13,989 nucleotides of DNA, from contig JBDGUI010000021.1 of assembly GCA_042216015.1 (NCBI GenBank), positions 1 to 13,989 on the forward strand. The letters are read 5' to 3'. A program made the translations under genes and the position numbers. The DNA is from Halodesulfurarchaeum sp. GTDB lineage: Archaea > Halobacteriota > Halobacteria > Halobacteriales > Halobacteriaceae. The notes under the pieces are model-generated. The model was not told the DNA's origin, did no database searches, and saw nothing but the letters and a program-made list of their open reading frames with translations. Below, one piece after another: positions 2,556 through 11,984 of the stretch; position 1 is the stretch's first letter; every line of letters begins with the position of its first letter.

Positions 2556-4427
2556 ATGAGCATCGAACAGGAAGTGGAGTACGACCTCCCGATGGACCGA
2601 CTGGAGGAATCAGAGCCGCAGTGTCCGTTCGGGACAGCCGGGAGCTGTTGTCGGGTCTGTTATATGGGACCCTGTCGGGTGAGCGACAGTGAGCATGGAA
2701 TGGATCGCGGGGTCTGTGGCGCCTCGCCAGGTACCGTCGCCGCCCGGAACCTCTATCGGGCGATCGCTGCCGGGACCGCGAGTCATGCAGACCACGCCCG
2801 CGAAATCGCCGAGGTGCTGGTGGAGATCGCCGACGGGAGCCTGCAAGACTACGACATCCGAGAGCCGGAAAAACTCCGCAACATTGCCGAGGATCTGGGA
2901 CTGGATGTCTCGGGCAGTGACGGGGAAGTGGCCAAACGGGTCTCGAAAGCGGCAATCGAGGACTTCCAGGAGGGAGGTGACACGCTCAACTGGCTGGAGC
3001 GGATGCCGGCCGAACAGCGCGAGCACCTCGCCGAGCGGGGCATCCAACCACTGGAAAGCGTCGACAAGGAGGTCGCCCGGGCGATGCACCGAACCACGCA
3101 GGGGAACGACGCCGAGCCGGCTCACCTGCTCACGGGTGGGCTCGAGGCGGGACTGGCCGACGGCTATGCGGGCCTCACGATGGGGACGGACCTCCAGGAC
3201 GTCGTCTTCGGTACTCCCCAGCCGGTCCAGACGACGGCGAACCTGGGCGTGATGGAAGCGGACCAGGTCAATATCGCCGTCCACGGCCACTCGCCGGTCC
3301 TCTCGGAGATGGTGGTCAAGTACGCGGACGAGCTTGAGGACCAAGCGAAGGAGGCCGGGGCCGAGGGTATCAACGTCGTCGGCATCTGTTGTACGGGGAA
3401 TGAACTTGCCGAGCGCCAGGGGGTCCCGTTGGCGGCCCACAGCAGTCAGGCGGAACTCGCAGTGACGACAGGCGCTCTCGACGCCATGGTTGCGGACATT
3501 CAGTGTATCTGGCCAGGCATTGGTGACATCGTCGAGTGTCACCACACCCGGCTTATCACGACGGTCGACTACGTCAATATCCCCGGCGCAGAGCATGTGT
3601 CATTCGAGCCCGAGACGGCCGAATCCGACGCGAAAGATATCGTCGAGCGGGCCATCGAAGCCTTCGGAGACAGACACTCCCGCCAGGATTACGCAGTCGA
3701 AATCCCGGAAGAGCCTCGCGATGCACTCGTCGGCGTCTCCGATGATTTCGTCCTCGAAGTGCTGACTGCAGCTAACCCGGAGAGTCCCGCCCAACCCATT
3801 GTCGATGCACTGGCGGAAGGTCACCTCAAGGGAATTGTCGGAATCGTCGGTTGCCCGAATCCCAAGTCCAGGCGTGCGGAAATGACCGAAACCCTCATCG
3901 AGGACCTGCTCGCCCACGACGTGTTGCCGGTCGTGACCGGGTGCATCGGGCATATTACCGCCCAGGCTGGTTACCTCGACCCGGCGATGACCGACGAACT
4001 CGCCGGCGACGGCCTCTCGGCAGTCCTCCACCAGCTGGGAGAAGCTGCCGGCCTCGAAGGGCCCCTGCCGCCGGTCTGGCATATGGGCTCCTGTGTCGAC
4101 AACTCCCGGATTGGGAATATCGTCCGAGCGATTTCGGAGGATTCCGGTGTGCCGACACGTGAACTCCCGATCGTGGCGAGTGCGCCCGAACTCATTGCGG
4201 AGAAAGCGGTCAGTATTGGGACGTGGGCGCTGGCCCTTGGATTGCCGCTTCACACCGCTCCGACACTCCACATGGAAGATAGCGAGGAAGTCACCCACCT
4301 CATGACCGAGGCGCTGAAGGACATCACCGGCGGCTATGCCATCCAGGAAGAAGATCCGGAAGCCGCCGCCGAGGCGATCCGGGCCGCACTGGACGAGCGC
4401 CGCGAGGCCCTCTTCGGGGAGGCCTGA
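2556..4427 (+). CDS. cooS: Anaerobic Ni,Fe carbon monoxide dehydrogenase catalytic subunit
   Basis: D/B-cluster cysteines in QCPFGTAGSCCRVCYMGPC...GVCGA; proton-relay HADH; C-cluster ligand motifs AVHGHSP, GICCTGNE, DIQCIWP, IVGCPNPK, VTGCIG, HMGSCVDNSR; catalytic Lys in AEKAVSIG; 623 aa; adjacent cooC. Confidence 0.97.
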   Translation: MSIEQEVEYDLPMDRLEESEPQCPFGTAGSCCRVCYMGPCRVSDSEHGMDRGVCGASPGTVAARNLYRAIAAGTASHADHAREIAEVLVEIADGSLQDYDIREPEKLRNIAEDLGLDVSGSDGEVAKRVSKAAIEDFQEGGDTLNWLERMPAEQREHLAERGIQPLESVDKEVARAMHRTTQGNDAEPAHLLTGGLEAGLADGYAGLTMGTDLQDVVFGTPQPVQTTANLGVMEADQVNIAVHGHSPVLSEMVVKYADELEDQAKEAGAEGINVVGICCTGNELAERQGVPLAAHSSQAELAVTTGALDAMVADIQCIWPGIGDIVECHHTRLITTVDYVNIPGAEHVSFEPETAESDAKDIVERAIEAFGDRHSRQDYAVEIPEEPRDALVGVSDDFVLEVLTAANPESPAQPIVDALAEGHLKGIVGIVGCPNPKSRRAEMTETLIEDLLAHDVLPVVTGCIGHITAQAGYLDPAMTDELAGDGLSAVLHQLGEAAGLEGPLPPVWHMGSCVDNSRIGNIVRAISEDSGVPTRELPIVASAPELIAEKAVSIGTWALALGLPLHTAPTLHMEDSEEVTHLMTEALKDITGGYAIQEEDPEAAAEAIRAALDERREALFGEA

Positions 4428-4430
4428 TCC

Positions 4431-5318
4431 ATGTGTGAGGACTGTGGTGCCCACGGTGAGGACGCGGGTCATTCCCATCCTGCCAAATCCCGGCACAGTC
4501 AAAGTCAGGACCACGGGGCGGATCACACCCATTCGGAATGGGAACGGGCCGGTGAATTGTCGGACGGGATTCGCGTCGCAGTGACCGGCAAAGGTGGCGT
4601 GGGAAAGACCACCCTCTCGGCGGCCATCGCCGCTCATCTCGGGGCCCATCGTGAGGTGGTTGCCGTCGATGCGGATCCGGACATGAACCTGGCCTCCGCC
4701 CTGGGCGTTGAAGAGCCGCCACCCATCACGACGGAGCGCGAACTCATCGAGGAACGCGCCGGCGGGAGCGGGCTCGTCAACCTCACGCCCGAAGTTCGAG
4801 ACGTGCTTGACTCACATTCGACCGAGTTCGGGGGCGGTGGTCGATTGCTCACCATCGGTGCCCCGACGGGGGCGAACAGCGGGTGCATGTGCCCGGAGAA
4901 CAGTTTCGTTCGGACCCTGGTCTCGACGGCTCTGGGCGAGGATGCGGTTGTCCTCGACATGGAGGCGGGCGTCGAGCATCTCGGCCGTGGCACCGCCGAG
5001 TCCGTCGACGCGATGCTCGTGGTAGTCGAGCCCTCACAGGCCTCGATCGACACGGCCACGCGGATCCAGGAGTTCGCCGACGAGCTCGGCATCGAGAACG
5101 TGCAGGCCGTCGTGAACAAAACCCGCGACAACGCCGATCTCGTCGAATCGGCCCTGCCCGTTCCGGTCATCGCCACCCTGCCATACGATGAAGATATCGC
5201 CTCGGCAGCGATCGCCGGCCGGCCGCCGGTCGGTGAGAGCCGGGCACTTCGGGGGGTGGCTGCACAGATCGTCACTCGGCTGGCCGAGGCCAAAGAAGAG
5301 ACCCTCCCGACGGCGTAG
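4431..5318 (+). CDS. cooC: CODH nickel-insertion ATPase CooC with an N-terminal Cys/His-rich extension
   Basis: Deviant Walker A GKGGVGKTT, VDADPDMNL, metal-binding CxC (GCMCPEN), DMEAGVEHLGRG; ATG lies 3 nt after the cooS stop. Confidence 0.94.
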   Translation: MCEDCGAHGEDAGHSHPAKSRHSQSQDHGADHTHSEWERAGELSDGIRVAVTGKGGVGKTTLSAAIAAHLGAHREVVAVDADPDMNLASALGVEEPPPITTERELIEERAGGSGLVNLTPEVRDVLDSHSTEFGGGGRLLTIGAPTGANSGCMCPENSFVRTLVSTALGEDAVVLDMEAGVEHLGRGTAESVDAMLVVVEPSQASIDTATRIQEFADELGIENVQAVVNKTRDNADLVESALPVPVIATLPYDEDIASAAIAGRPPVGESRALRGVAAQIVTRLAEAKEETLPTA

Positions 5319-5372: not shown

Positions 5373-6500
5373 CTACGATCGCTCAGTTTGACTTTCGGTG
5401 ATGTCCGCAATGACTGCTTCAAGAGTCTCGATGGGAATGTCGTACTTCTCCGAGAGCTCCTGCAAGTCCGCGGGTGAGATGGGTACCCCATCACTATCGG
5501 TTTCAGGTTCGATTGAATTGGAGTCGGACTTGTCGACCGGATCGAGCGTTTCCTCACTCACGTCGAGTGAAACGGCGTCCCACCGGGTGTAGTGGCCCAT
5601 GGCATCGAAGTAGGCTTTCGTCGCACGGCGCTCGTCGCGGTCGAACTCGGCCGTCAGCAACCCCTCCTCGTCGAGGAGTGGCCCGGCCCTGACGATGCCG
5701 GCTGGATTGACGAGCATGCTTCCCCCGGCGCCGACGTTGAATCCGAGTTCCTCCTCGGAGAACGCTTCCGGAATGTCATCGCTCATGTACGCCGAGGCCG
5801 AGACGACGAAGGATTGGGTCTCGAAGGCGTATTCCCTCACGGCCGGATAGATGTCACAGCTTTCGGTCGCTCCCGCATCTTCGGCCCGGGTTTTGTCCCC
5901 GGGGTGGACGTGTTGCTCCCAGAAGCCCGGCCAGACGGCGGCATGGATCTCCTCGCCCTGCGCCATGAGGGCGGCCTTGGAGAGCGTCATGTGATTCTCA
6001 TAGCAGACCAGTCCACCCAGCTGGCCGATGTCGCTTCCGTAGGTTTGGAGACTCGCGGGATCGCCCCGACCCCAGATCGCCCGTTCCTCGTGGGTCGGCA
6101 TCAACTTCCGGTGGCGGCCCACCAGGTCGCCGTGCCGGTCGAAGTAGAAAAGGGAGTTGTAGAGCGTATCGCTTCCCGGCCGGTCACTCAGTTCGTTCGT
6201 CCCGAGGACGAGATAGAGGTCGGCCTCGGCGACCGCATCGCCGATGATATCGATCGCGTCGTCCTCGACGTGGAGGCTGTGTTTCTGCAGGTCGACCATC
6301 AGCTCGGTCCATCGGGGGATGGACACACTGCCGCGCCAGTAGGGGTACCCCGGAAAGTACGTTTCCGGGAAGACGACGAGGTCCGCCCCCCGGTCGCCCG
6401 CCTTCTCGATCCACCGACAGGTCTTCTCGAGTGTGCCTTCCTTGTCGTGATAGACGGGTTCGACCTGTGCGGCAGCGAGTGTGAACGATTCACGATCCAT
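5373..6500 (-). CDS. Nitrilase (carbon-nitrogen hydrolase family, nitrilase branch)
   Basis: Glu-Lys-Cys triad in VVFPETYFPGYP, HRKLMPTHEERAIWG and GGLVCYENHM; N-terminal LAAAQVEPV; C-terminal FDAMGHYTR. Start placed at ATG 6500 (MDRESFTL), not the ORF-track start at 6566. Confidence 0.9.
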   Translation of the reverse strand: MDRESFTLAAAQVEPVYHDKEGTLEKTCRWIEKAGDRGADLVVFPETYFPGYPYWRGSVSIPRWTELMVDLQKHSLHVEDDAIDIIGDAVAEADLYLVLGTNELSDRPGSDTLYNSLFYFDRHGDLVGRHRKLMPTHEERAIWGRGDPASLQTYGSDIGQLGGLVCYENHMTLSKAALMAQGEEIHAAVWPGFWEQHVHPGDKTRAEDAGATESCDIYPAVREYAFETQSFVVSASAYMSDDIPEAFSEEELGFNVGAGGSMLVNPAGIVRAGPLLDEEGLLTAEFDRDERRATKAYFDAMGHYTRWDAVSLDVSEETLDPVDKSDSNSIEPETDSDGVPISPADLQELSEKYDIPIETLEAVIADITESQTERS

Positions 6501-6523
6501 ACGTCGATAGTCGTCGGGTCTCG

Positions 6524-6536
6524 TGAAAGTTGTTCG
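6524..6536 (-). promoter_or_regulatory. Weak BRE/TATA-like element for a leaderless nitrilase transcript
   Basis: Minus strand CGAACAACTTTCA at -36 to -24 relative to ATG 6500. Position fits a haloarchaeal promoter, but the match to consensus is poor. Confidence 0.25.
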
Positions 6537-6582
6537 TACGGGTGGTATTTTGGCCGGCACAGCCAACCGATACTGACCCGTT

Positions 6583-9309
6583 TTACGAATAGAAGATCAC
6601 CGGTCGCCGGTCTTCGCCGTACTCCTCCTCGGGCACGTATTCAGCCAGCACGTCGCGATCCGCCACACCAAGGAGTTGCTCGAGGACGTCGACGGCCGAG
6701 GCCCGCAACAGCGGCTGGTTGTCGTTCCCGCAGTTTTCATCGAAGGTGCAGGCCGGACAGCCGTTTGGCTGGCCACAGTCACAGTCCCGGAGTCGATCGC
6801 GGGCCCGCTCGGCCAGATTCTCGAAGTTCTCGTAGATGCCCCGGGCAAACCCCAGACCACCGTCGATGCCATCGTAGATGAACCAGCCCGAGGCCGTCGG
6901 GCCCGATAACTCGGTTGAGCGACGTTCGAGTGCGTGAGTGGCGGCCTCGAAGGACTCGCCGATCGAGTCCGCGATGTCGTCGTAGTCGGAATGGGAATAG
7001 TGGGTATCCATCACGAGCGTCGAGAGCCCGCCGAGGTCGTTCTTGTCCACGCGGAGTTCCAGTGGCGCGGTTTTGATCGTCGCGTGTTCGGCGGCGTGCA
7101 ACCCGGCGACGTATCCGAGATGCGGTGAACCGGTCTCGTCGGAATCGACGCCGGTTTCGACGCCATACTCCTGGTATTTCCGAATCAGCGGGGTTTCGAC
7201 TTCCGCGGGAACTTCGACCCAGGTCAACTGCGTCTCCATCAGGATCGGTTGGGATTCCGTGGGGATCATCTCCTTTTTCAGCTCGCTATTCCTGATGTAC
7301 TTCCGATCGTAGGCGTAGTGATGGACCATCACGGTTCCGCGACCGAAGTGAAGGGTGAAGCCGTTGAGCTCCCGGGAGCGCGCTGACTCGGCGTCGAAGA
7401 CCGTGACTTTGCTTCGGGATGTCGTGTAGTAATCCGAATCCACTGGCCGGAGTTCGATCGTTGGTTCGTGTCGGGTTTCGTCGACGGAGACGACCTCGAA
7501 TTGCTGTCCGTGCTGTAACCTGACGGCGCCCTCGTGATAGTCGCGGGAGGCCCGATTCCGATCGATCGGTTCCAGATCGAGATCCTCGGGCAACCCCCAC
7601 CGATCTCGATCGACGTCCGCTGCGAGTTGCAGGTGGAACTCCTTCTCACTGGCACCGAAGAAGTTGATGCGGGTCTGTGGCCGATTCGGCCCACTGTAGT
7701 GCACCCCGGCATCGAGAGACCCCTCGACGAATCCGGATTCCCGCCACATCTTGGCGGCCGCCCTGAGGCGTTCTTCCTCGGCGAACGTGTCGATATCGGC
7801 TTCATCGAGGGCGATTTCGTCCGCGGCACAGAGCACGTGTTTCGCAAAGACCGAGTCGTTCGACGTGTCGACGACGGCATCCTCGACGTCGTTTTCGAGG
7901 AGGTACTCGGGATGGTTGATGACGTACTGATCGAGTGTCCGGTGATCGGCGACCAACACCGCGAGACTCGCACTCATGCCCCGCCCGGCGCGGCCGATGC
8001 GTTGCCAGAAGGACTGGCGTTGGCCCGGGTAGCCCATCAAGACGGCGGCGTCGAGACTCCCGATATCGATGCCGAGTTCGAGTGCCGACGTCGTCGCGAG
8101 CCCGGTGAGTGCACCCGATTTGAACTGGTGCTCTCTGGAGTGACGCGTCCGCCGCCCCAGCCCGGCGTTGTAAGCTGCCCAATCGGGCGAGCCTGTTTGT
8201 CCGTCTGCCCGGGGATTGTTGTGCCGATGCTCCTCGGCGCGCTCGATACTGAGTTCCGTGAGTTTCCGACTCGGACAGAACAACAACGACCGAACACCCT
8301 GAGCCGTCAAGTGGCCGAATACTCGTGGCGCTTCGACGCTGGCCGGAACCCGATCCGCCACGAAGTAATCGTCGTCGGTGTCGAGGGCATCTGTCTCGGA
8401 TTCGAAATCCGGCATCACGTCTTTGCCATCGTTCTCGCGCTTTTCCACTGGCGGCGGATTCCACAACACAATATCCCGAGGTCCATGGGGCGAGCCGTCC
8501 CTGTCGACGACCGTCACCGGCTGATTGATCAGTTGCTCGGAGTGAGCGGCCGGATTGCCGATCGTCGCGGAGGTGAGCACGTACTGTGGATTGCCACCAC
8601 AGTACTCGGCCACGCGTTGGATTCGCCGGAGGATCCAGGCGACGTGCATGCCCTCGATCCCCGTGTATGTGTGTGACTCGTCGATCGCGACGAGGGAAAG
8701 CGCGCCGTAAAATCGACTCCACTTCTCGTGATGTTCGAGATAGAGATTGAGGCCGACGAAGTTCGTCAGGATGACGTCGGCCTCCTCACGAATCGCCCGT
8801 CGATTGCCGGTGGTGTCGCCGTCGTAGATCCGAACCCGGATGTCGAGTCCAAGTTCGTCGTAGAGATCCTCGAGGGCCTCTTTTTGGTCGTTCGTGAGCG
8901 CCTTCATCGGATAGACACACAGCGCCGTCGAAGCCGCGTTGTGCTCGGCGGCCCTCGTCCCGTCCGGTTCGAGCACGCCGGCGTCGAGGAGATTGCGGGC
9001 GATCTGGAGCGCATAGATGTGTGTCTTCCCGCTGGAGGTAGACGTGGTGACGGTCACGTTCTCGCCCTCGGCGAGCGCATCGAGGGCCTCGGCCTGGTGT
9101 ATGAACAGCTCGTTCGGATAGTCTTCGCTCAGCGTCGGGCGCAGGATCTCAGTTGGTGGCGTCGTCTCCGCCGGCTTGGCGGGCATCTCGATGCGTTCGA
9201 CGAACGGCGAGTCAGTCGTCAATCCCGCCCGAGGAAACGTTTCGATTAGCTCCCGTCCGGTGAGCCCGATATCCCGTCCCAGATCTGCGGTCGTGTCTCG
9301 CTCGCTCAT
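6583..9309 (-). CDS. DEAH-box SF2 helicase with C-terminal DUF1998 Zn-binding domain (Hrq1/MrfA/YprA/SftH family)
   Basis: Q motif LFIHQAEAL, Walker A TSTSSGKT, YPMKALTNDQ, DESH, SAT, ATTSALELGIDIG, QRIGRAGR, HAAEH, and four-Cys CDCGQPNGCPAC...C. Start ATG 9309 overlaps the upstream gene's TGA (ATGA). Confidence 0.93.
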   Translation of the reverse strand: MSERDTTADLGRDIGLTGRELIETFPRAGLTTDSPFVERIEMPAKPAETTPPTEILRPTLSEDYPNELFIHQAEALDALAEGENVTVTTSTSSGKTHIYALQIARNLLDAGVLEPDGTRAAEHNAASTALCVYPMKALTNDQKEALEDLYDELGLDIRVRIYDGDTTGNRRAIREEADVILTNFVGLNLYLEHHEKWSRFYGALSLVAIDESHTYTGIEGMHVAWILRRIQRVAEYCGGNPQYVLTSATIGNPAAHSEQLINQPVTVVDRDGSPHGPRDIVLWNPPPVEKRENDGKDVMPDFESETDALDTDDDYFVADRVPASVEAPRVFGHLTAQGVRSLLFCPSRKLTELSIERAEEHRHNNPRADGQTGSPDWAAYNAGLGRRTRHSREHQFKSGALTGLATTSALELGIDIGSLDAAVLMGYPGQRQSFWQRIGRAGRGMSASLAVLVADHRTLDQYVINHPEYLLENDVEDAVVDTSNDSVFAKHVLCAADEIALDEADIDTFAEEERLRAAAKMWRESGFVEGSLDAGVHYSGPNRPQTRINFFGASEKEFHLQLAADVDRDRWGLPEDLDLEPIDRNRASRDYHEGAVRLQHGQQFEVVSVDETRHEPTIELRPVDSDYYTTSRSKVTVFDAESARSRELNGFTLHFGRGTVMVHHYAYDRKYIRNSELKKEMIPTESQPILMETQLTWVEVPAEVETPLIRKYQEYGVETGVDSDETGSPHLGYVAGLHAAEHATIKTAPLELRVDKNDLGGLSTLVMDTHYSHSDYDDIADSIGESFEAATHALERRSTELSGPTASGWFIYDGIDGGLGFARGIYENFENLAERARDRLRDCDCGQPNGCPACTFDENCGNDNQPLLRASAVDVLEQLLGVADRDVLAEYVPEEEYGEDRRPVIFYS

Positions 9310-10835
9310 GGGTGAAATTCGGTAAGTCCGGCCTGTTGGCCGGTCCCGTCGTCGGTTTGACTGTCGGTCACGTCTCGTCGAGTCGCCTCCGTGATGGATC
9401 GATACACGTGCCAGAGCGCCCGGCAATCGTCCTCGCAGTAGGCCTCGTGGCGGTCCCAGTCGGGCTCTCGGTCCGGGTCGTCCGGGTCCCGCCTGAACGC
9501 CCGGTAGGCGGCAGCCGTTTGTGCACCGGTCAATCCGGTCTCACCCCCTTCGTGGCCGAGCGCGCGTGCGACGTGATCGAGTTTGTTCGTCCGTCCGGGA
9601 AGCAAGGCGTTCCCGTCCCGGACGACCCACTCGTACAGGTCGTATTTCCACAGACCATCCCACGCCTCGACGTACTGCGGGAGATGCTGCTCGAGAAACT
9701 GTCGGATGTAGTGATAGTCGAAGCCATACCCGTTCCACGTGAGCAGCGTACGATCCGCGTGGTTGGCGAGCAGCCAGTGCAGAAACGCTTCGAGGACGGG
9801 TTTCGGGTCCCGTGGGTGGTTCCGCTCGATGAAGGACTGGTGTCGGTCCGTCGCCGGGTCGTAGACGCCGAATTGCCAGATGATCGTGGGCGAGAGCCCG
9901 TCCGTTTCGATATCCAGGCAGAGCGGTGGGCGCCCGTCGCGGGTTTTGATCGGGCGCTCGTTCGTCAGCACGAGCGGCTCGCCCGAGTCGATGACGTCGG
10001 CGTGGGCGTGAATTCGCTCGGCGGTCGACCGGCCGATACCGGGGAATTCCTGAAGCTCGGAAACCGGGAGTTTCCGAACGTCGCTCCGGGTTTCATGGCC
10101 CCGCTTGCGCAAGCGGTCTGCGGTCTTCTCGCCGATTCCGGCGAGTGCCTGGAGCCCGAATCGGTCGGGCTTGACCGCCTCGGCAGCGACACGTCCCTGG
10201 GTCGTGAGGGTATGCTGGGCGACGTCCGCGGTTCCCTCCGCTGTCGCCCCGAGACCCACCACGGGAACAGACACGGTCGTCCCGTCCACGGGGAGCGACC
10301 ATTCGTGATGATATTCCGCCGGCATCCCGCCGGCCAGCACCGTCATCGGCTCCGGAAGCGTCTTTCCGATTCGGGCGAGCCTCTCGGCTCCCGGGAGCGT
10401 CGTGGAGAGGGTCGTCGGGTCCCGCTCGACCCGCAGCTGTGGAACGTGCAGATACGTCGCCGCCGCTTGTGCGGTGTCCCGCTCGCCAGCCACGAGGTGG
10501 TCGGCGACGCGGTCCAACAGGTCGTCGCTCTGGACGCTGATGAGGTCGATTGCCCTCGTTTCACCGCCCCCACCAGTTTCCGTGCACACGCCGATTTCCG
10601 GAGTGTATCGGTACTGCTTCACGTGGGTGCCTCGCTGGGCGAGTTGCGGGTGATCGACGGCGAGGTCCGCCCCAGCCTGCCGAACGGTCGCGTATCCCTG
10701 TGCGTCGATCGAACCCGGGATCGTGATCATGTCCGGATCGAAGTACTCGACGGCGTCTCGAACGGACTCAAGCGAGAGGCGGTCGAGGCTCCGTGAGGGG
10801 AGACTCAGCAGGTCGAGGGAAGCGGGGTCCGCCAT
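9306..10835 (-). CDS. RNase H-like DEDDy 3'-5' exonuclease (YprB/MrfB-like) with tandem helix-hairpin-helix motifs and an N-terminal domain of unknown function
   Basis: ExoI LDIETDG, ExoII WNGYGFDY, ExoIII YCEDD; HhH motifs LAGIGEKTADRL and FPGIGRSTAERI. Start at ATG 10835 (MADPASLDLL) is supported by a TATA box at the expected distance; the longer ORF-track start would overlap artA. Confidence 0.87.
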   Translation of the reverse strand: MADPASLDLLSLPSRSLDRLSLESVRDAVEYFDPDMITIPGSIDAQGYATVRQAGADLAVDHPQLAQRGTHVKQYRYTPEIGVCTETGGGGETRAIDLISVQSDDLLDRVADHLVAGERDTAQAAATYLHVPQLRVERDPTTLSTTLPGAERLARIGKTLPEPMTVLAGGMPAEYHHEWSLPVDGTTVSVPVVGLGATAEGTADVAQHTLTTQGRVAAEAVKPDRFGLQALAGIGEKTADRLRKRGHETRSDVRKLPVSELQEFPGIGRSTAERIHAHADVIDSGEPLVLTNERPIKTRDGRPPLCLDIETDGLSPTIIWQFGVYDPATDRHQSFIERNHPRDPKPVLEAFLHWLLANHADRTLLTWNGYGFDYHYIRQFLEQHLPQYVEAWDGLWKYDLYEWVVRDGNALLPGRTNKLDHVARALGHEGGETGLTGAQTAAAYRAFRRDPDDPDREPDWDRHEAYCEDDCRALWHVYRSITEATRRDVTDSQTDDGTGQQAGLTEFHP

Positions 10836-10860
10836 TCGTTCGTGGGTTGTGTTAGGTCGC

Positions 10861-10867
10861 CTATAAG
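10861..10867 (-). promoter_or_regulatory. TATA box of the exonuclease-helicase operon
   Basis: Minus strand CTTATAG, with TTATA at -31 to -27 from ATG 10835, the usual spacing for leaderless haloarchaeal mRNAs. Confidence 0.7.
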
Positions 10868-10883
10868 CCCCCGCTGAGCGGAG

Positions 10884-10894
10884 TGAAAGTGATT
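10884..10894 (-). promoter_or_regulatory. Candidate DNA-damage/UV-response element (AATCACTTTCA)
   Basis: 9 of 11 bases match TTTCACTTTCA, the motif I recall upstream of UV-induced genes in Halobacterium NRC-1. It lies 49-59 nt upstream of the ATG of a DNA-repair-type operon, just upstream of the TATA box. Confidence 0.5.
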
Positions 10895-11093
10895 TTGGCC
10901 GCGCTCCACTCACTCTCGCATTGGGACCGTCCCCTTTACCCGGTCGGGGAATCGGCATGGCTACGAGAATGGGAAAAACCGGGAAGCCGTCGAGCGGGCA
11001 AGGGCGGTTCGGCCACCCACTCGGGAACGCCGCCAGTCGGCTTTCTTCCACGATCGATACACACTTCCGGGGACGATTCCTTTCGGCGAACAC

Positions 11094-11984
11094 ATGGCTG
11101 CGGTCCCCGATCTTTCGGCCCTCACCGACCCGCTCGCGTGGATCGTCCTCGCGGCCTTCGCCGGAAGTGCGTTCCTCGCGTTCCGGGACTCGCCCTACGA
11201 GCGACACGCCGCCACGGCCTCGTGGTCCATCTTTGCGCTCTTCTGGGCGCTCATGATCCCCCACTACGCGATCGAGATGCGGAGCATCATCGAGGGGGCT
11301 CTTAGCGTCGTTGCGGTGCCGGCCACCCTGTACGTCGCGTGGCTCATCTGGACCGAACGACGATCGTTTACCGTCCTGACGCGGGCGGTTGCCATCATGG
11401 GCTTGGTCTACCTCCCCTTCGAGACGATCGCGGTCCTCCGGAGCGGGTCGATCGAACTCGTGGCCCGGAACGTGGAGGCGATCCTCGGGCTCCTGGGCGT
11501 CGAACCGACGGTCATCACCGGACCGGACGGATTACGGAGCACCTTCGTCTTTGTCGCCGAAAACGGCCACCGGCTCACGACCCGCGTGGTGCTCGCCTGC
11601 ACCGGAATCGGGAGCATTTCTATCGTGACGGGGTTGACGCTGGCCGTCGACGCGGCCCCCAGGCGAAAGGCACTCGGCGTCGCCCTCGCCGTACCGATCA
11701 TCTACGGACTGAACGTCCTTCGGGTGGCATTCATCGCCCTCGCACACGGGTTCCAGTGGTTCGCCGACCTCCGGGGACCGGTCTTCTTCCTCTTCCGCAT
11801 CGAGGACCCCTACCTCGTCTCCTATATCGTGGCCGACCGGGTCATCTCCCAGTCCCTGTCGCTGGTCGCCCTGATCCTCATCACGCTTGGCCTACTCAGA
11901 CTGGTACCGGAACTCGGAACGGTCGTGGAGGACGTGCTCTTCCTGGTCACCGGGACCGACGCCGACCTCGAATTCGATCGGTAA
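11094..11984 (+). CDS. artA: Archaeosortase A (PGF-CTERM processing)
   Basis: Multi-pass membrane protein with catalytic Cys in VVLACTGIGS, Arg in LNVLRVAFI and a second Arg in VADRVISQSLS; C-terminal PEL...ED pattern typical of haloarchaeal ArtA. Confidence 0.88.
   Translation: MAAVPDLSALTDPLAWIVLAAFAGSAFLAFRDSPYERHAATASWSIFALFWALMIPHYAIEMRSIIEGALSVVAVPATLYVAWLIWTERRSFTVLTRAVAIMGLVYLPFETIAVLRSGSIELVARNVEAILGLLGVEPTVITGPDGLRSTFVFVAENGHRLTTRVVLACTGIGSISIVTGLTLAVDAAPRRKALGVALAVPIIYGLNVLRVAFIALAHGFQWFADLRGPVFFLFRIEDPYLVSYIVADRVISQSLSLVALILITLGLLRLVPELGTVVEDVLFLVTGTDADLEFDR

Follow-up and report, generated by a model that had tools for sequence, protein, structure and literature searches.

A Cys2/His-rich N-terminal leader on the CODH maturation ATPase CooC of Halodesulfurarchaeum sp. 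and its possible role in nickel capture

The cooS-cooC locus and the ATPase core

The window, a 13,989-nucleotide stretch of a Halodesulfurarchaeum sp. contig belonging to a 1.68 Mb assembly (completeness 86.6%), carries the gene of a monofunctional Ni-CODH catalytic subunit, cooS, followed by the gene of the CODH maturation ATPase CooC (Table 1). The cooS gene is intact, its product contains the cluster-ligand motifs, and it is the sole CODH gene found in the assembly (one match). Its stop codon TGA (4425–4427) is followed by TCC and then by the cooC ATG at 4431, which is the 3-nt gap pointed out in the first-pass annotation. Eight genomes of a 401-genome Halobacteria sample have this type of CooC, five with and three without the N-terminal leader described below, and cooC lies immediately 3' of cooS in all eight. 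Because the flanking genes (surface protein, nitrilase, helicase) are not the same in relatives, cooS and cooC can be regarded as a two-gene unit. The minus strand after cooC (5373–11264) encodes a Nit6803-like nitrilase, an MrfA/Hrq1-type helicase, and an RNase_H_2/HhH protein, and archaeosortase A is also encoded in the window. One Halodesulfurarchaeum MAG has two cooS-cooC loci (L004 and L030) with the leader on both, reflecting either duplication or bin mixture; the apparent frameshift at L030 is an assembly gap of Ns inside the leader.

Table 1. Features of the cooS-cooC locus, in window coordinates.
Feature	Coordinates	Strand	Evidence
cooS, monofunctional Ni-CODH catalytic subunit, 623 aa	2556..4427	+	TIGR01702, 606.5 bits against a cut-off of 478
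cooC, CODH maturation ATPase with N-terminal leader, 295 aa	4431..5318	+	homologues named CO dehydrogenase maturation factor; PDB match 3KJE
N-terminal head M-C2-E-D-C5-G-A-H8, candidate tight metal site	4431..4454	+	conservation of C2, C5, and H8 in homologues; binding putative
His/Asp/Gly-rich disordered tract with 6 His; variable-length linker, candidate weak multi-metal sites	4455..4568	+	pLDDT; comparison of homologues
In-frame TTG, codon 43, possible alternative start	4557..4559	+	unconserved; shared solely with L001 among 8 leader-bearing loci
Deviant Walker A, GKGGVGKT	4587..4610	+	same in CooC1; invariant in 51/51 aligned homologues except T/S
CxC motif, Cys152/Cys154, canonical CooC inter-subunit Ni/Zn site	4884..4892	+	aligns with CYC (Cys112/Cys114) of CooC1 (3KJE); invariant in alignment

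Among named homologues, those from Halodesulfurarchaeum are closest (86%). CooC1 of C. hydrogenoformans (3KJE, E 2.9e-37) is the one PDB entry to match at E ≤ 1e-10, and the match starts at residue 48 of the haloarchaeal protein, shortly before the Walker A motif at residue 53. The deviant Walker A motif on a MinD-type fold, the CxC motif, and the gene position next to an intact cooS are all shared with CooC1 (3KJE/3KJG/3KJH/3KJI) and with the CooC proteins of R. rubrum and D. vulgaris. By every feature that can be checked in the sequence and the model, the protein is a CooC, and ATP-dependent loading of CooS with nickel is its putative function. However, CooC1 (254 aa) begins at the first strand, whereas the Halodesulfurarchaeum protein has 46 additional N-terminal residues, including Cys2, Cys5, and seven histidines.

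The N-terminal leader and its conservation

As first annotated, a leader of about 46 residues precedes the ATPase core: positions 4431–4568 translate to exactly 46 residues with two cysteines and seven histidines. The chain reads MCEDCGAH at its start, and it had rightly been noticed that the third cysteine of the corresponding HypB motif is here an alanine (Ala7) followed by a histidine (His8). A Pfam search with the leader gave nothing at E ≤ 1. The AlphaFold2 model gives pLDDT values of about 46–52 for residues 1–40, with most of the core above 85, and the low values suggest that the leader is a disordered arm. Of the genome's 26,976 stop-to-stop segments, one alone has MCxxC followed by at least three histidines within 45 residues, and it is the cooC leader, which argues against a chance pattern.

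The first-pass annotation took the leader to be probably translated and stated that no other methionine precedes the P-loop. A further ATG is indeed absent, yet the annotation overlooked a TTG in frame at codon 43, and a start at this codon could yield a CooC of canonical length in Halodesulfurarchaeum sp. The homologues nevertheless bear out translation. Among the eight leader-bearing loci compared, three (L003, L004, and L005) have no ATG, GTG, or TTG from Met1 to the P-loop, and in two more (L006 and L037) the only alternative start is a GTG two codons ahead of the P-loop. As these loci have no usable alternative start, their leaders are necessarily translated.

We defined the haloarchaeal type of CooC as the top 54 of the 120 homologues listed (query included, E ≤ 1e-75). 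All but one of them, the partial sequence P0008 that was left out of the tree, form a single strongly supported branch of 53 proteins in a quick tree, for which the careful search is unfinished. The leader is widespread, as the alignment proposed with the annotation confirmed: 46 of the 54 proteins have it, and seven of the eight without it constitute a sister branch. The leaders fall into the classes CxxCGxH (23), CxxCGCH (10), CxxCxxH (3), and single Cys (10), and the ten CxxCGC leaders are found at three places on the tree. All 46 leaders have Cys2 followed by an acidic residue at position 3. Cys5 is retained in 36/46, and His8 accompanies it in every one of those 36; nine of the ten leaders lacking Cys5 have a histidine instead, that is, an alternative ligand. 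Leader length varies from 22 to 89 residues with the reading frame maintained, and the histidine count from 1 to 31 (median 11), with merely one or two histidines in two leaders. Histidine makes up 25% of the leaders versus 1.6% of the core. The codon of Cys2 alternates between TGT and TGC across leader-bearing loci, and the aligned homologues display no conserved interaction segment in the linker. This pattern of conservation shows selection for a cysteine at position 2 and for histidine richness, not for length or sequence. No leader was seen in the remaining 66 of the 120 listed homologues, which are of the methanogen and ANME type, or in 77 CooC-like frames from other loci. The metagenome scan returned no haloarchaeal loci, and the plasmid searches gave one distant match each. 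An ATCUN motif has histidine as the third residue; read after Met removal, it fits 9/46 leaders, which does not exceed the expectation from the 25% histidine background, and this interpretation was rejected.

A profile of the leader and the P-loop, searched against 1.84 billion representative sequences, recovered further Met-Cys/His-rich starts outside haloarchaea, ruling out a leader confined to this group. P0145 defines a bacterial CooC clade whose members, where named, come from Myxococcales, Ca. Kentron, Chromatiaceae, and Steroidobacteraceae. A Met-Cys start is found in 116 of the best 120 members, followed by D/E in 107 of the 116, with a median of seven histidines; CxxC occurs in 22 of these 120 proteins, Cys2 alone in 94, and CxxCGC in none. 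The bacterial clade lies far from the haloarchaeal one in a tree of the cores alone (130 rows, FastTree, with long-branch warnings), and the AU test, made on 28 hand-picked rows with LG+G4, rejected a single clade of five plus five leader-bearing cores against 18 others (p-AU 5e-107). Since the ATPase cores of the two clades do not group, the arm was gained or kept more than once; the rejection is equally compatible with separate gains, with transfer of the arm, and with its repeated loss. What is constant across the clades is an N-terminal Cys2 with a His tract and not CxxCG, and it recalls Cys2 of CooT and the His-rich region of CooJ as much as HypB.

A third small group (P0137, P0273, and P0274), with a Met-Cys-Gln start and four to five histidines, branches beside the haloarchaea. 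The CooC-like frame L083:330-1337, which branches with this group, has a His-rich C-terminal tail (eight histidines in the last 50 residues). Two 301-genome phylum samples contained no members of the bacterial clade; a third phylum sample contained three, each immediately 3' of cooS and each with a His-free extension. In P0362 and P0364 of the bacterial clade, a charged, probably helical, His-free N-terminal extension likewise replaces the Met-Cys/His leader. L144:1816-2688 and L145:2091-2963 encode CooC proteins with the His-free extension within ferredoxin-cooS-cooC-flavoprotein operons.

It could be argued that the leader is a neutral low-complexity extension, or that it stays untranslated in Halodesulfurarchaeum sp. 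owing to a start at the TTG of codon 43. The wide spread of length and histidine content and the occurrence of leaderless relatives would be in line with the former, and the TTG present in the source cooC and in L001 with the latter. We consider both highly improbable, because Cys2 persists in all 46 haloarchaeal leaders despite synonymous codon change, the frame is held over 22–89 residues, the leader recurs in bacteria, and several loci have no alternative start.

Comparison with HypB, CooT, and CooJ

The leader was initially likened to HypB because of CxxCG and the histidines. The likeness holds for the layout of CxxCGC plus histidines in 10/54 homologues, but CxxCG is not the conserved unit of the leaders, which is Cys2. 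According to the accessible text of PMC13202556, the N-terminus of type-3 HypB consists of CxxCGC and a His-rich region. Type-3 HypB proteins (Bradyrhizobium, Rhizobium, Azospirillum, and Sulfurimonas) resemble the haloarchaeal CooC in having Cys2, CxxCG, and a disordered His tract ahead of a P-loop metallochaperone domain, and the type-2 HypB of E. coli likewise has a Cys2 and CxxCG start (MCTTCGC). Four type-3 HypB sequences compared directly have CxxCGC and a His tract. However, HypB is a G3E GTPase dedicated to hydrogenase, whereas the carrier of the leader is a MinD-type ATPase dedicated to CODH. The third cysteine of the HypB site is present in only 10/54 haloarchaeal and 0/120 of the best bacterial CooC proteins, with His8 conserved instead, and the full Cys2/Cys5/Cys7 site is incomplete in the source CooC because of Ala7. 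In HypB, this site is square-planar, has picomolar nickel affinity, and includes the N-terminal amine.

These similarities raise the question of whether the leader descends from a type-3 HypB N-terminus (CxxCGC plus His tract) that was grafted onto CooC and has since eroded. The CxxCGC leaders at three places on the tree and the four HypB proteins with identical layout would agree with such a graft. Several observations make it doubtful: BLASTP against E. coli HypB gave no significant similarity (E 0.19 over six residues), although low complexity blurs any homology, position 8 is His in 36/36 CxxC leaders versus Gly or Ser in the five HypB proteins seen, CxxCGC is absent from the best 120 bacterial-clade leaders, and the six haloarchaeal HypB proteins examined (from the source genome and five others) have no CxxCGC to donate. 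A motif swap between HypB and CooC in haloarchaea was also rejected, since HypB is without CxxCGC in 6/6 genomes, leader-bearing and leaderless alike. The hyp cluster of the source genome (contig C2:44092-48288; L031 and L032) encodes HypA and a HypB without CxxCGC. Ahead of the G domain, haloarchaeal HypB proteins share a short AHRxGH motif, and His tails are present at the C-terminus of several.

The E. coli HypB site binds nickel through the N-terminal amine and Cys2/5/7; this nickel is required, yet HypA does not receive it, and the N-terminal extension touches the G-domain (PMC12284835, accessible text). The analogy with HypB alone therefore does not imply storage plus hand-over. It might instead suggest a regulatory site, in which the head would bind and keep one nickel (or zinc) ion and the loaded arm would contact the ATPase domain, switching ATP turnover or dimerisation. 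A similar role has been proposed for the E. coli extension, whose nickel is needed but retained and which contacts the G-domain (PMC12284835, accessible text), and the head of the leader is much better conserved than its His tract. We nonetheless consider this unlikely, as a sensor has no need of up to 31 histidines, most bacterial leaders have just Cys2, and the linker shows no conserved segment that could mediate the contact.

CooT binds nickel via Cys2 (PMC6006190; bioRxiv 2026.03.10.710785), and CooJ binds about four nickel ions via its His-rich region (PMC6006190), with a site of the form HWxxHxxxH (bioRxiv 2026.03.10.710785), according to the accessible parts of these sources. The likeness to CooT (PF10133) thus lies in a Cys2 that is the key nickel ligand of a CODH accessory protein, matched by Cys2 in 46/46 haloarchaeal and 116/116 bacterial leaders, and not in family membership: CooT is a protein of its own, a 7 kDa dimer with a beta-sheet fold, whereas the CooC leader has neither a Pfam match nor a predicted fold. 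CooJ, another CODH accessory protein, likewise contains a His-rich region that is disordered, but it has a helical core bearing its HWxxHxxxH site, a motif missing from the leader. Clade B Ni-CODHs provide a further parallel with His-x-His tails in cis, proposed to be built-in nickel chaperones in the accessible text of Inoue et al. 2019 (PMC6344411); their tail sits on the enzyme, whereas the haloarchaeal one sits on the maturase and is headed by a fixed Cys2. The leader belongs to none of the HypB CxxCGC, CooT, and CooJ families, although it would work like them if it is a nickel-binding arm.

The first-pass annotation had further asked whether the leader is specific to loci without cooT and cooJ, and suggested that it would explain how a two-gene locus matures CODH. 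Neither idea survived the comparison. CooT was detected in none of eight haloarchaeal cooS-cooC genomes (the source genome, four other leader-bearing, and three leaderless ones), in a search whose control gave PF10133 matches in 2/14 reference genomes; with CooT undetected irrespective of the leader, the leader does not single out loci without cooT or cooJ. The CooJ pattern has a variant with Trp or Phe at its second position, and H(W/F)xxHxxxH was absent from the six frames of the genome and from 15 loci, a weak negative given how poorly CooJ is recognised from its sequence. The three leaderless genomes have the same cooS-cooC pair with CooT undetected. Nor does a locus of two genes have to be accounted for specially, because CooC is the sole maturase of the D. 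vulgaris CODH, a common arrangement (PMC6006190; bioRxiv 2025.09.14.676152; accessible text of both). A His tail on CooS that would compensate for a lost leader was sought and found in none of the three leaderless loci. At these loci (L136-L138), the acidic extensions at the N- and C-termini of CooS are longer than at leader-bearing loci. The leader is dispensable, given that 8/54 homologues do without it and that the three complete leaderless genomes show no CooT, no nearby CooJ-type motif, and no His tail on CooS.

Possible function of the leader

We favour the interpretation, with a probability of roughly 55%, that the protein is a canonical CooC maturing the adjacent CooS and equipped with a tethered, optional nickel-capture arm. 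The invariance of Cys2 despite the length range of 22–89 residues and the same design in 116 of the best 120 proteins of a distant bacterial clade support a nickel-capture arm. Cysteine as a small penultimate residue permits removal of the N-terminal Met, and CooT also uses its N-terminal amine for nickel. In the haloarchaeal CooC, Met1 would be removed, and the free amine and Cys2 would make one tighter nickel site, assisted in haloarchaea by Cys5 and by His8 or Cys7; Cys2, Cys5, His8, and the amine are thus the candidate ligands in the source protein. The His/Asp tract might hold several further ions weakly. The flexible arm could enrich nickel locally, around CxC or around the CooS C-cluster opened by CooC with ATP, and the tether would be long enough to reach either CxC or CooS. 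The arm might thereby perform in cis part of the work done in Rhodospirillum by CooT with its Cys2 and by CooJ with its His-rich region. Added nickel rescues cooC, cooT, and cooJ mutants of R. rubrum, and the genes matter at low nickel (PMC6006190, accessible text). The arm would likewise matter mainly under nickel scarcity, as expected in sulfidic brine sediments.

Cys/His arms also bind zinc, cobalt, and copper, and the preference for nickel is only presumed. The arm could therefore be a filter removing zinc or other competitors from CxC and the open C-cluster, or a metal buffer, and zinc does compete at CxC (PMC6006190, accessible text). Such a role seems more improbable still than a regulatory one, for it leaves unexplained why cysteine is fixed in two separate clades at position 2, the nickel position of CooT and HypB. 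The nickel-capture reading might be extended, as a tentative and less probable proposal, to a hitherto unrecognised class of self-supplying CooC that arose at least twice, in haloarchaea and in a large clade of Gammaproteobacteria and Myxococcales. The two Cys2 arms of the dimer would together build a nickel site resembling that of CooT, with the His tracts serving as a tethered CooJ; a single polypeptide would then capture nickel and deliver it to CxC or directly to the C-cluster.

The route of nickel to the CODH C-cluster is unsettled: CooC may donate the metal or do no more than remodel the site, and what CooT and CooJ contribute is unclear (PMC6006190, accessible text). Natural CooC pairs that differ in the Cys2/His arm, while their two-gene loci are otherwise identical, offer a clean comparison by deletion or swap. 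If a self-supplying CooC exists, deletion of this single module could separate nickel donation from remodelling of CODH, and such a self-scavenging CooC could also help to load CODH with nickel when the enzyme is produced heterologously. On the sequence evidence, the leader is real, conserved, and recurrent, but it varies a known theme and is an optional feature among close relatives. The full-text literature searched, a body that excludes supplements, most subscription journals, and the main haloarchaeal CO paper, contains no CooC with such a leader, nor is one described in the accessible text of PMC6344411, PMC11247825, and PMC10134865; within this scope, the leader is apparently undescribed. 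We judge its significance as moderate at most, because nickel chaperones with His-rich tails are familiar and close relatives manage without the arm.

Other His-rich and CooC-like proteins were observed alongside. The source genome encodes a chelatase-like protein with a long His-rich C-terminal tail (contig C24:16363-17613), presumably a CbiX-like chelatase. A second haloarchaeal CooC-like clade is leaderless, with GKGGSGKT and CMC motifs, and occurs in 8/401 genomes with no cooS within 1.5 kb (L042-L049 in G320, G140, G344, G367, G345, G356, G292, and G268). No CODH match was found in G344 and G356, both 99% complete; hypE adjoins L047, and a hydrogenase maturation protease is encoded at L044. 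The ATPase of this clade possibly serves [NiFe]-hydrogenase maturation. P0055 (505 aa) has two CooC-like CxC motifs and is apparently a tandem CooC fusion.
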